A stretch of 64,000 bases of DNA from an uncultured Clostridia bacterium (GTDB lineage: Bacteria > Bacillota > Clostridia > UMGS1883): contig CANQRB010000004.1 in assembly GCA_947626145.1 (NCBI GenBank), positions 29,250 through 93,249 on the forward strand. The letters are read 5' to 3'. The notes under the pieces are model-generated. The model ran no database searches and was not told the DNA's origin. It saw only the letters and a list, made by a program, of their open reading frames with translations. Shown here in pieces: positions 12,934-19,069 of the stretch (within the stretch, counting starts at the first letter, position 1; the number at the start of each line of letters is the position of its first letter). A program made the translations under genes and the position numbers.

Positions 12934-12997
12934 TAATGCGGTATGGAGAAGCTGTCTGTTGGGCTTGGCGAAGTTAGCATGGTATCACCTCAAAACG

Positions 12998-13040
12998 AAA
13001 CGGACGCTCCGCTTGGAACGTCCGTTTGATTATCTTTTTA
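12998..13040. terminator. Hairpin (aaacggacg...cgtccgttt) with a weak T-rich tail between convergent operons
   Basis: 9-bp stem and 12-nt loop, then gattatcttttt. Confidence 0.4.
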
Positions 13041-13092: not shown

Positions 13093-13404
13093 CTATTCTA
13101 ACTTTTTTTGATAATCGCTTTTAGCATAAACGACTCTCGTAACAGTTATCAGCTTCTCGCGCTCATCCACACGATAAAACATAATATAATTCTTAATCAG
13201 CAGTTTACGGTACTCATATTTTAAAGTTTGGAGTGGGCGATAAACAGGCATGGAATACGGAAAAACTCTGATTTTTTCCGCTTCGGTTATAAACTCCTCA
13301 GCTAACCGTCCGGCCGCAATGGGATTTGATAATGTTTTGCCGATATATGTCACAATGTTAATCATATCCTGTTGGGCGATAGGCTGAAACTCCAAATCAT
13401 ACAT
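13093..13404 (-). CDS. RelE/ParE-family type II toxin
   Basis: About 100-aa protein matching the ParE/RelE plasmid-stabilisation toxin pattern; ATG shares an 8-nt overlap (ATGTATGA) with the antitoxin stop. Confidence 0.75.
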   Translation of the reverse strand: MYDLEFQPIAQQDMINIVTYIGKTLSNPIAAGRLAEEFITEAEKIRVFPYSMPVYRPLQTLKYEYRKLLIKNYIMFYRVDEREKLITVTRVVYAKSDYQKKLE

Positions 13405-13675
13405 TTTCGGTTTCTCCAATCGCCTCGCGCATATTTTTCAAGACTTCTTTTGGTGAAAACCGCTTGTTTGTCATTTCCGCCTCATACTCCGCCTCCTTAA
13501 GCTTAAAGTACACTTCGCTTTCAAACTGAAGATTTTCATAAGCTTCCATACTCATAACAACCATGTCGCCAAAACCGTTTTTTGTTAAGAAAACGGGCTG
13601 CTTTGTTTCGTGGACTGTCTTGGAAATATCCGCAAATTTATTTCTTAAGTCCGAAACGGGTCTTATTAAATTCAT
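13397..13675 (-). CDS. Phd/YefM-family antitoxin
   Basis: MNLIRPVSDLRNKFADISKTVHETKQPVFLTKNGFGDMVVMSMEAYENL is a classic Phd/YefM N-terminus; RBS AGGAGG 7 nt before ATG. Confidence 0.75.
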   Translation of the reverse strand: MNLIRPVSDLRNKFADISKTVHETKQPVFLTKNGFGDMVVMSMEAYENLQFESEVYFKLKEAEYEAEMTNKRFSPKEVLKNMREAIGETENV

Positions 13676-13777: not shown

Positions 13778-13813
13778 CAAAAAATGAGCTATGGAGGGTT
13801 GGCTCCATAGCTC
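13778..13813 (-). terminator. Intrinsic terminator for the SLH-protease gene (11-bp perfect stem gagctatggag/ctccatagctc then ATTTTTTG on the minus strand)
   Basis: Perfect hairpin followed by a T run in the minus-strand reading direction, about 115 nt past the stop. Confidence 0.6.
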
Positions 13814-13927: not shown

Positions 13928-16900
13928 TTATAAGGCTATCATACCATCAGTTTCATCATTACCATTAAGTTCTTCGTCCTTTTTGCCTGTGTTTTTATTC
14001 TCAGATATATCTCCTTCGAAAGCTGTTTCGACGGACTCTTCATTTTTAAGTTCTTTGCCTCCAAACTCATTACTGATATCCTTTATTGGCACTTTGTCTG
14101 GCAAGGATTCAATAGAAACTAGTGACTCTTCATCATGATAATTTATTAATATGCCATTAGATATTTTGAATACAGGCCAAGAGTTTCCTGATTGGTTAGA
14201 AGAAACTTTGTACACCTCAACTAAGTTATTTCCATTATATAACTCTACCTGTGCACCCGAAGTCGCCCAAGTACCTTCACCGTAGAACCAGTATACATAA
14301 TATTCATATGTGCTATTTATGTCCACTTCAAATGTAACGGTTTCCGGCCCTTCTCCATCGGTATCATCCACATCCAAATTGGCCACCAAATCTCCTGATG
14401 CATTATATCCGTTTCTGTTAGAAAAATATACATGAAAGTTTCTATGGTCTGAAAGGCTTCCAACCAAATGAGAGTCTAAGTCGCTGGGATTCATGTTCCA
14501 ACGAAGAACTGCCCTATATTGATTGCTAGTCATCGAAGGAGAAATGCTTCCATTTTGATTGGCAACTTCTCTTCCCCCAATTATTGTGACGTTGAAATAT
14601 CCGGTGGTGTATCCGTACTTTTCCATTTCTATTGTATAATACCCAGAGGATGCAGTTAGTGAATATTCACCACTACCGTTAGTTATTGTTGAAGATATTT
14701 CCTCACCTTTACTACTATTCCACCCGTTTCTCAACCTGACTATTACGCCATCAATAGGATATCCGGTTGTTGCGCTTGTAATAACGCCGCTTATTTTTCC
14801 TTCACCAGACTTTACAAGTTTAACAAGTTCTTCTGTTTGGTTGTCTTTTGTTACTGTCGCAAGCCCGTAGAAAGGCATATAACCGTCTTTTTCAATAACA
14901 ACAGAATATGTTCCCACATCAAGAGACAGTTCTTTTGCTCCCTCTGCGCCTATTTGAACTTTCCCAATCAAGAAATCATCATCAAGTATAGATATAGTTG
15001 CATCTTTTATAAATGTTTCATCTTCCGCATCAACAATTTGTATATAAAGAGTACCTCTATCCCCATATATACCAACATCATCAAATGCACGTTTTATAGT
15101 CATTTTTTCCGCTTTAGACAATCCCTGAGTATCAGCTTGAAGCAGTACATTTCTCCTTACGGTTTTAAAGTTAGAATTTGCACTGAAGCCCTTGCCCAAC
15201 GAACCATACCATAGGTCTATAAGCTTAGACATTGAAATGGCCGGAAGACTATAAGAGGGATAGCCTTGTGACATTAAATATGCAGCATGAGAAATTACTG
15301 ATGAATTCGTGTGAGCAAATACTGATTTATTACCAGTATTAGTGCACCAATTAGTTCCACCAACTTTACTGGGCTTATGGCAGGAAGATGGATCCTTAAC
15401 ATTTCTTAATGGTCGCCAGTCCTCCCCTATGGTATAGTTATTATCATCAACGAACCATCCAAAGATATCTGCGTATGCTTCGTTGATTGCATAAGATATA
15501 TGACCATTACTGTGATCGTGACTAAGTCCATTCCCTGTCTTAAACTGAACTACTCCATGAGTGTACTCATGAGCAATAATATCAAGTCCGCTGGCCGTAG
15601 TAGTTTGGAGATTACTGTCGTTATTACTATTATCATAAAAATAGAATTCTTTGTTGCCGCCTGTCCAACACGCATTACTACTGCCTCCAAATTTATGAAC
15701 AGTTACTTTAATAGGATATCCATTCCCGTCCACAGAGCGTCTGCCCAAAGTGTCCGCATACCAATTATATACATCTATCATATTGGTGTATGCAGAAATA
15801 GCCGTTTTATCTCGCCATACATTAAATTCACTGCCAACTCTACTATTAACAAGTCCCCCATCATACATTTTAATGTTTCTCTCTGAATCTTCCATATAGT
15901 AGAATAACCAATCCCATTGTTTAAATTGTACGGGGAATGACACTTCGGTATTTTTTTCATTTTCACCGCTACCAGTTACTCTTTTGTCGCCCCAGTCTAA
16001 AATATTGCTTCCAGAATAAATTACGGAACCAGTATATCCATTTATGATTACAGTTTCGTCAATATTGTCGCCAGACAAACAAATTACATATGCTACAACA
16101 GGACTTTGCTCATATTCATCAAGAGAATATATAACTACCTCTGTTGATACAACATCTACTGATTCTTGCGGGTACTGACTTTTAGCAATATTTATTGCTT
16201 CACTTTCTGATATCACGGGGTCGGTATTTACATCAACTAAGTTTGCAGATGCAACTACATCGGATGTTAATGAAGTAGATGTTCCATTATTATCTACAGA
16301 CACGGTTAAATTTCTATCATAAACGTCAAGCCCATTATATTGTTGACTAAAAGTATAATCAGTTCCGTATTTGCCAGAATTTGTCACAGATATATTTAAT
16401 TCTTTTATTGGATCGTTCATGCCAAGAATTGTTCGAACTCCGTATATTGCATAAAGAGCATCGTCTGGGGAGTTTATATCAATATCACTTATTTTACCAC
16501 TTATCGCTGTTACTTGGGATCCCTCTTCATTGTATTCTATATAAGTATCAAAATCTGCATCCTTATTCATTTGCTCTATATCGACAACTGAATTATTAGG
16601 AGACTCATTAATATTAAAGTTACTTTCTTTTATAACCGTAACTTCAAAAGATTTTGTTAAATTATAGTCTCCTTTCGATATGCTAGCGTTGAGTCTAACA
16701 TTTTTATTCTCATTTATCGGACGTGAGACGGAACCGCTTTCTGAAACTACATTAATATTGTTACTTTCCCATGATATATCTACTGTTTCAATCATTGTTG
16801 GTAAAATCAAATCATGAGTAACAGATTCTTTACAGTCACCTTTACTATATGTAATTTCAAGAGTATCATATGCATATTGAACTATCGCTTTATTAAATTC

Positions 16901-18259
16901 ATTCTCATCATATTCTACCCACCTTGCATACAAAGTTAATTTATTGTTAACGGCCAATTTAAAATCATAGATATTTTCGCAATCCCTATCAGTATACCAG
17001 CCACCAAACAAATAATCTTTACGTTCAGGGTCTTTGGGAATTGTAACATTATTTCCAGCTAAAATCTCTTGACTTTCAGGCGCATCCTCTGCCCCTTCAT
17101 AATTCAAATCAAAGGTGACAGTGTAAACGCCGTCCTCCTCAATTTCTTCTTCCCAACCAGCATACAGAGTCAAGCGCTCGGTAATTTCCGTGTTCTCAAA
17201 ATCAAACTCATAAACGCATTCCTCATCTGTGTACCAGCCCGTGAAGATATAGCCCTCTCTTTCGGGATCATCGGGACGCTCTGCATAATCGTTCTTCTTT
17301 ACTTTCTGGGTAGCCGGAGGATTTTTCGCTCCTGAATAATTCAGGTCAAATTTTACATTGTATCTCGTGGTGCCGCCGGAGCTTCCGCCACCACCGCCAC
17401 CACCGGTGGAACGACTTATCGTATATTCAACGCTCATCACATCGCTGACAAGAACATCATCTTTTACCGCGATTGCCTTCAGTGTCGCGGTAGACAGTAT
17501 ATTTATATTGCCACCTGTGTATTCCTCGCTGTCAACTGTGGGCTCTGTTCCATCGGTCGTATAGTAAATCTTAACGCCCTCGGTGTCGCTCTTAAGCGTT
17601 ACAAGCTGATTTACATAATATGTGCCCGCCTCAACGGACGCGACAGGGGCGGCTACCGTTGTGCGGAGACCGTTATAAACCATTACGGCAATGTCCCCAC
17701 GGGTAGAGGCTGATCCCTTTCTGCCCTTGAGGTTATCCGTTATACCGTTATCCTCAGCCGCTTTAATATAGCCGGCAGACCAATCATCAGGGTCGGATTC
17801 AACATCGTCGCCAAGACCGACGCCGCAAACCACCATCTTTATGGCCTCTTCATATTTGACGTCGTCATCCGGCATAAATCCGCCGCTACCGTTGCCGTTT
17901 ATTATCTCCTCTTTCGCGGCGACATTGATGTAGCCGCTGGCCCAGTGGTCGGCGGGAACATCGTCAAACTTTGTGGCGCCCTTGGAATTGCGGGCATCGT
18001 TCTCCTTGCCTATCATGCGGCATACTACCGCCGCCATTTCGGACCTTGTGATAGATTTATCCGCCCCAAATGTACCGTCGGCGTAGCCGGTGAAAATGTC
18101 GAGCTTTTCCAGAGCGAGAGCCGCCTCGGCGTAATACTCATTCCCCGTAACATCGGAAAAGACCGTGCCTGCGGCAAAAGCACCGATCGGCGCAAGCGAC
18201 AGTGTCATTGCCAAAACTAAAATGATGCTTAAAAATTTTTTCACGATTGTAACCTCCAA
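13928..18259 (-). CDS. SLH-domain-anchored thermolysin-like (M4) zinc metalloprotease. Order: signal peptide, 3 SLH, Ig-like, Listeria-Bacteroides-type repeats, PepSY/FTP propeptide, M4 catalytic domain, C-terminal beta-sandwich domains. Likely GTG start at 18244
   Basis: SLH repeats (FSDVTGNEYYAEAALALEKLDIFTGYADGTFGADKSITRSEMAAV...). GWYTD repeats. HEXXH as IIAHEYTHGVVQ plus downstream NEAYADIFG (thermolysin-type zinc ligands). Poly-Gly linker. GGAGGT lies 7 nt before the GTG. Confidence 0.85.
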   Translation of the reverse strand: MEVTIVKKFLSIILVLAMTLSLAPIGAFAAGTVFSDVTGNEYYAEAALALEKLDIFTGYADGTFGADKSITRSEMAAVVCRMIGKENDARNSKGATKFDDVPADHWASGYINVAAKEEIINGNGSGGFMPDDDVKYEEAIKMVVCGVGLGDDVESDPDDWSAGYIKAAEDNGITDNLKGRKGSASTRGDIAVMVYNGLRTTVAAPVASVEAGTYYVNQLVTLKSDTEGVKIYYTTDGTEPTVDSEEYTGGNINILSTATLKAIAVKDDVLVSDVMSVEYTISRSTGGGGGGGSSGGTTRYNVKFDLNYSGAKNPPATQKVKKNDYAERPDDPEREGYIFTGWYTDEECVYEFDFENTEITERLTLYAGWEEEIEEDGVYTVTFDLNYEGAEDAPESQEILAGNNVTIPKDPERKDYLFGGWYTDRDCENIYDFKLAVNNKLTLYARWVEYDENEFNKAIVQYAYDTLEITYSKGDCKESVTHDLILPTMIETVDISWESNNINVVSESGSVSRPINENKNVRLNASISKGDYNLTKSFEVTVIKESNFNINESPNNSVVDIEQMNKDADFDTYIEYNEEGSQVTAISGKISDIDINSPDDALYAIYGVRTILGMNDPIKELNISVTNSGKYGTDYTFSQQYNGLDVYDRNLTVSVDNNGTSTSLTSDVVASANLVDVNTDPVISESEAINIAKSQYPQESVDVVSTEVVIYSLDEYEQSPVVAYVICLSGDNIDETVIINGYTGSVIYSGSNILDWGDKRVTGSGENEKNTEVSFPVQFKQWDWLFYYMEDSERNIKMYDGGLVNSRVGSEFNVWRDKTAISAYTNMIDVYNWYADTLGRRSVDGNGYPIKVTVHKFGGSSNACWTGGNKEFYFYDNSNNDSNLQTTTASGLDIIAHEYTHGVVQFKTGNGLSHDHSNGHISYAINEAYADIFGWFVDDNNYTIGEDWRPLRNVKDPSSCHKPSKVGGTNWCTNTGNKSVFAHTNSSVISHAAYLMSQGYPSYSLPAISMSKLIDLWYGSLGKGFSANSNFKTVRRNVLLQADTQGLSKAEKMTIKRAFDDVGIYGDRGTLYIQIVDAEDETFIKDATISILDDDFLIGKVQIGAEGAKELSLDVGTYSVVIEKDGYMPFYGLATVTKDNQTEELVKLVKSGEGKISGVITSATTGYPIDGVIVRLRNGWNSSKGEEISSTITNGSGEYSLTASSGYYTIEMEKYGYTTGYFNVTIIGGREVANQNGSISPSMTSNQYRAVLRWNMNPSDLDSHLVGSLSDHRNFHVYFSNRNGYNASGDLVANLDVDDTDGEGPETVTFEVDINSTYEYYVYWFYGEGTWATSGAQVELYNGNNLVEVYKVSSNQSGNSWPVFKISNGILINYHDEESLVSIESLPDKVPIKDISNEFGGKELKNEESVETAFEGDISENKNTGKKDEELNGNDETDGMIAL

Positions 18260-19069
18260 TTTTATTTATTCACTTTCTAATTGCAGGAAAACACCGCCAC
18301 TGTATGTCACGCCCCCTTTTGGGCGAATTTGTCCTCCGTACAATAAAAAATGCGCAGCTCATCGGAGCCGCGCACGAAAAATGCTTAGCTCCGAATTTAC
18401 TGCGACATAAATTAATATAACACAAAAGAAACGCATTTTTGGCACTCGCTCATTAAAAATGCAACCAGAGCGTTACAGGAGCAGCATTTTTACCAATGCT
18501 AATGTTGCTCCGGTTAGCACTTTTATACGTTAGAATGTTAAAACAATGATAGAAAATATAGGTACTCAAAAAAGAGCGCAAAAAGCGAACTTAATAAGCG
18601 TTTCTATATTAATCTATGTCGCAAATAAAGTATACCACACATTTTTCCGGTTGTAAAGTGTTTTTTTTTCGTAAATGAATAATTTTTTATAACATATTCG
18701 CCGCGAAACCCATCTAGGCGCTTATCTTGCTGCTGAACGGCTCCCCGACTGTTTTACAAAAGAGTCGAACATTGCACAAATTCGTTCTTCGTAGGAAGGA
18801 GCTGCCACAACATTTCCCTCCTTTTGCTAAAAATTGTTCTTGGTCGGTTTTCCCCCCCTTTGTAATACCGGAACAATTTAAGTTATACAAAATCGGAAAT
18901 TTTTTTAAATTATCTGAAAAAGTCAAAATAAAAAGGACAGATTAATATCTATCATTCTCAGTATTCAATTACATCGCCTTTAAAAATCCCCTCCGGCGCA
19001 TGAGGGGGTTTACGCCGGAGAAAATTTTATATATCAAAGAGGCCCGTGCCTCTTAATTTTTGCGGCCGG

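Follow-up and report, generated by a model that had tools for sequence, protein, structure and literature searches.

What might explain why an uncultured gut Clostridia bacterium carries a thermolysin-like protease joined to a cell-wall anchor, with an inhibitory propeptide lodged between the two, and why the DNA encoding it changes composition sharply partway through the gene? The gene lies within a 64,000-nt stretch of one contig (the window), and the initial annotation had assigned it to 13928..18259. An uninterrupted ORF of 1443 codons, counted from TTG, does occupy these positions, on the minus strand; translation of the plus strand over the same interval meets many stops. The 5' end, however, probably has to be moved 15 nt downstream. 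The TTG at 18259 is overlapped by a GGAGG ribosome-binding site (18257..18253), and the likelier start, judged from the sequence, is GTG at 18244, seven bases past that site. The coding sequence would then span 13928..18244 (minus strand; TAA stop, 13930..13928) and specify a pre-pro M4 metalloprotease of 1438 aa, a product of which an exact copy is recorded on other metagenome contigs. An ORF of 1443 codons with the E-values given below is far above chance. The gene is real, and its product is a large secreted zinc protease from the thermolysin family that carries a fused cell-wall anchor. The best overall explanation, in which we have good confidence, is a Sec-exported, multi-domain M4 pre-pro-enzyme encoded by a mosaic gene.

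The M4 catalytic domain (aa 758-1059; 15068..15973, minus strand) was identified by Pfam, sequence, fold and alignment of relatives. Peptidase_M4 (63.5 bits) and Peptidase_M4_C (76.3 bits) both exceed their gathering thresholds, thermolysin is matched at E = 3e-23, and the matches to thermolysin, bacillolysin and aureolysin range from 1e-20 to 3e-23. The AlphaFold (AF2) model has a pLDDT of 91 and superimposes on thermolysin, aureolysin and gentlyase with TM 0.84-0.87. The initial annotation had proposed an M4 enzyme from HEYTH (aa 892-896) and NEAYADIFG (aa 921-929). That proposal holds: the HEXXH motif is not fortuitous, and it is invariant among 30 relatives together with the Glu that provides the third ligand (E922). 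With the MEROPS M4 enzymes (thermolysin, bacillolysin/Npr, aureolysin, gentlyase and vibriolysin MCP-02), the protein shares the two-lobed fold, HEXXH, the NExxxD third-ligand motif, equivalents of His231, Arg203 and Asn112, and an N-terminal FTP/PepSY propeptide. It would act as a zinc endopeptidase, with H892, H896 and E922 as ligands, E893 as the general base and H978 stabilizing the transition state; across the 30 relatives, D926, R947, N857 and H978 show little or no variation. Sequence identity to solved M4 structures is nevertheless only 24-28%, and the calcium-loop region that lies in thermolysin between GEDVYTPGISGDS and LRSMSDP is shorter. The propeptide comes after about 750 residues of anchor and stalk, and some 380 residues of extra sandwich domains extend beyond the catalytic domain, which sets the protein apart from thermolysin-like M4 enzymes.

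Two auxiliary catalytic positions also depart from those enzymes. The equivalent of Tyr157 is His909, where 23 of the 30 relatives have Tyr, and that of Asp226 is Lys973, where 25 have Asp; a four-residue insert (915-918) in the loop ahead of the third zinc ligand occurs in this protein alone among them. Catalytic efficiency may be reduced or altered as a result. Could these second-shell changes, unique or rare among the relatives, have gone so far as to impair or repurpose the domain, leaving a pseudo-protease or adhesin that serves mainly as a surface-binding protein? Many relatives in the anchor family do carry only binding-type domains. We consider such a role improbable, since the three zinc ligands, the general-base Glu, D926, R947, N857 and H978 are all intact, a retained propeptide would be pointless on an inactive domain, and the ORF is intact and identical across several samples. 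An active zinc protease, whose probable role would be extracellular protein breakdown in the gut, is the preferred reading.

The domain order is signal peptide, three SLH motifs, CHB_HEX_C_1, Gly linker, two Flg_new repeats, aBig_2, FTP/PepSY propeptide, M4, two CarboxypepD_reg/PEGA domains, a TerD-like domain and an acidic tail, all on the minus strand. A Sec signal peptide (aa 1-24, MKKFLSIILVLAMTLSLAPIGAFA followed by AG; 18173..18244) was read directly in the sequence, without a predictor. The three SLH motifs, the third degenerate (aa 27-195; 17660..18166; Pfam SLH 72.5 bits in two stretches), form a cell-wall anchor that aligns with the three-SLH crystal structures 6cwc (aa 43-182) and Sap; after export they would bind secondary cell-wall polymer non-covalently. 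A stalk that could hold the enzyme off the wall is made up of a CHB_HEX_C_1/Fn3_assoc beta-sandwich (aa 205-274; 17423..17632; 68.4 and 53.3 bits), a Gly/Ser linker (aa 279-291; 17372..17410), two Flg_new (InlB B-repeat, or Listeria-Bacteroides) repeats (aa 294-365 and 374-443; 16916..17365; 103.9 bits in two stretches, with InlB B-repeat structure matches) and an aBig_2 (atrophied bacterial Ig) domain (aa 456-539; 16628..16879; 69.1 bits). The SLH repeats, Gly linker and Listeria-Bacteroides repeats of the initial annotation were all recovered, and its core reading of an SLH-anchored secreted M4 metalloprotease with such repeats and an FTP/PepSY propeptide is supported. It had overlooked CHB_HEX_C_1/Fn3_assoc, aBig_2, the identities of the C-terminal beta-sandwiches and the compositional break within the gene.

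The beta-sandwiches that it had left unnamed at the C-terminus are present, and can now be assigned to two CarboxypepD_reg/PEGA domains (14570..15052; PEGA/CarboxypepD_reg aa 1065-1144, CarboxypepD_reg aa 1151-1225) and a TerD-like domain (aa ~1241-1368; 14141..14524) with conserved acidic positions (D-L-D-S-H-L ... L-D-x-D-D-T-x-x-G-P-E). These domains, the last of which probably binds Ca2+, would be likely to contribute stability or to help bind substrate or surfaces. An acidic, Lys-rich, low-complexity tail (aa 1369-1438; 13931..14140) follows. A strong terminator noted after the gene is indeed there (13813..13786, minus strand), with an 11-bp stem containing six G-C pairs, a loop of six and then ATTTTTTGTA.

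If the SLH motifs tether the protein and the stalk extends it, is the active enzyme displayed on the cell surface, as the initial annotation envisaged? The anchor domains are there, but that picture takes no account of the propeptide (aa ~560-750; 15995..16567, minus strand), which sits between anchor and catalytic domain. The FTP half scores 21.6 bits in the whole protein and 25.1 as a sub-sequence, above the cutoff of 21, and the PepSY-like half scores 17.8 and 22.2 bits, under the gathering cutoff of 24. The modeled fold matches the propeptide chain of vibriolysin MCP-02 (3nqy_A), the M36 propeptide 4k90_B and YpeB PepSY domains; with a pTM of 0.62, the model is no reliable guide to how propeptide and catalytic domain sit relative to each other. 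Once folded, the propeptide would inhibit the catalytic domain. Because of its position, the anchored species is most likely a latent zymogen or a non-covalent pro-enzyme complex, and thermolysin-type autoprocessing, canonically at about residue 750-757, would detach a mature enzyme of ~75 kDa from a wall-bound stub.

Permanent display would require the propeptide to stay uncleaved, or to be cleaved within a stable wall-bound complex, so that active enzyme remained on the stalk and was not shed. A long stalk of sandwich domains fits such display, autoprocessed M4 pro-enzyme complexes can be stable enough to crystallize (3nqy and 3nqz descriptions), and the combination of SLH with this cargo recurs in P0001, P0124-P0128 and P0150, so the arrangement appears to have been selected. 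After cleavage, however, no covalent link to the anchor would remain, and the sequence downstream offers no C-terminal anchor, sorting motif or transmembrane segment, the acidic tail included. In characterized M4 enzymes, moreover, the bound propeptide is an inhibitor that must be degraded before activity. Retention of active enzyme on the wall is less likely, and release on activation is preferred. In Clostridioides difficile Cwp84, as in most anchored proteases, an N-terminal propeptide is paired with a C-terminal anchor, so that maturation leaves the enzyme wall-bound; in the present protein the propeptide follows an N-terminal anchor. There is an analogy in HtrAw of Brevibacillus sp. WF146, a protease with an N-terminal cell anchor that is released by autoprocessing of its N-terminal part (PMC5359297). 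HtrAw belongs to the serine proteases, has a transmembrane anchor and shows no sequence relationship; the analogy extends to release on activation alone.

Two parts make up the mosaic gene. A cargo cassette of much lower GC is joined, within Flg_new repeat 2, to the resident promoter, leader and anchor. From 18746 to 17094, the DNA is 94.3% identical over 1654 aligned nt to a subtilisin (S8)-bearing gene locus, L002, in a rabbit-gut MAG, where the subtilisin cargo follows the anchor in the same frame. Within this block lies a promoter-like site (18629..18657, minus strand), identified by consensus match, with TTTACA, a 17-nt spacer and TATACT preceded by TG (10 of 12 matches, extended -10). 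The ~380-nt leader that follows (18245..18625, minus strand) has strong predicted structure (fold z = -6.5 versus shuffles) and holds a terminator-like hairpin at 18375..18350; it has no match in Rfam, even at E<=1, and shares 93-94% identity with the S8-gene leader of L002 and L004. At about codon 383 (17094..17100, minus strand), identity to the S8 gene ends sharply and GC3 collapses, from 0.54 in the anchor to 0.27 in the cargo, compared with 0.72-0.78 in core genes; the S8 gene shows the same step.

Identity to the sister locus returns for 61 nt (96.7%; 12977..13037, minus strand), which mark the distal boundary of the replaced segment and contain a terminator hairpin (13027..12998) and then a ribosome-binding site, a GTG and the opening codons of an HNH gene, which is complete in L002 but cut short here. 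Between the two blocks the sequences are unrelated. The cassette comprises Flg_new, aBig_2, propeptide, M4, two CarboxypepD_reg and TerD-like domains, and then a pair (13093..13675, minus strand) of Phd/YefM antitoxin (13397..13675) and ParE toxin (13093..13404) in the same low-GC segment, ending at the conserved terminator. A scan for the junction across JGI metagenomes gave no match. An assembly chimera is an unlikely source of the GC step and identity break, since at least two samples independently yielded identical contigs.

Only one sister locus is known, and the direction and mechanism of the cargo exchange are inferred. It is conceivable, though we think it unlikely, that the M4 and S8 genes are long-standing paralogues within a single genome, with gene conversion keeping their 5' parts similar, and that low GC is general to such cargo regions and not a sign of foreign import. 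The shared block does include promoter and leader, the flanks of the S8 locus differ on both sides outside the shared blocks (it could be a paralogue and not an allele), and contigs break within the anchor in two of four samples, as expected of two coexisting near-identical copies. The two cargos are also equally low in GC. Yet a GC3 so far below that of both anchor and core genes would be hard to sustain in long-resident sequence, the low-GC segment also takes in the toxin-antitoxin pair and stops exactly at the second conserved block, only one anchor locus was recovered from the species-representative MAG, and a decayed integrative element adjoins the block. Import of the cargo remains the preferred reading.

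How unusual, then, is this protein? The initial annotation had called its domain order unusual, which is not borne out within the clade. At least 1281 database proteins have the N-terminal anchor module, joined to a wide range of payloads that includes S8, vWA, lipase, M4, GH2 (glycosidase) and CHAT, and the cargo module forms ~40 clusters, several with SLH; other proteins pair the same cargo with SLH, with Flg_new only, or with Big_2, CBM2 or FHA and vWA domains. Uncharacterized proteins from gut and rumen MAGs annotated as "M4 family metallopeptidase [Clostridia bacterium]" (P0121-P0138 and P0001) share the whole cargo module from Flg_new to TerD-like at 34-48% identity over 97-99% of its length, and SLH is carried by P0001, P0124-P0128 and P0150. 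Even with the nearest relative, identity reaches only about 43-48%. These relatives differ in the other domains that they carry and retain Tyr and Asp where the protein studied here has its two auxiliary substitutions. P0001 comes from a low-GC organism and its GC3 is low throughout, in contrast to the compositional split of the present gene. It is an ordinary kind of protein, yet the gene is plainly a composite, its anchor part resident and its enzyme part foreign; the mosaic gene, the position of the propeptide and the substituted auxiliary residues are what go beyond the first reading.

A constant wall anchor with a variable effector is familiar from the SLH proteins of Bacillus anthracis and the Cwp family of C. 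difficile, which includes the protease Cwp84. Those families share with this gene a conserved triple wall-binding module and interchangeable functional domains; here there is, in addition, direct DNA evidence of recent exchange in the 94% identical 5' block and its sharp break. The TerD-like domain resembles the Ca2+-binding beta-sandwich of TerD (tellurite-resistance protein D), with no sequence-level match to Pfam models in these scans or to PDB sequences; its Ca2+ binding is putative. TerD is cytoplasmic and stands alone, whereas this domain is extracellular and fused to an enzyme.

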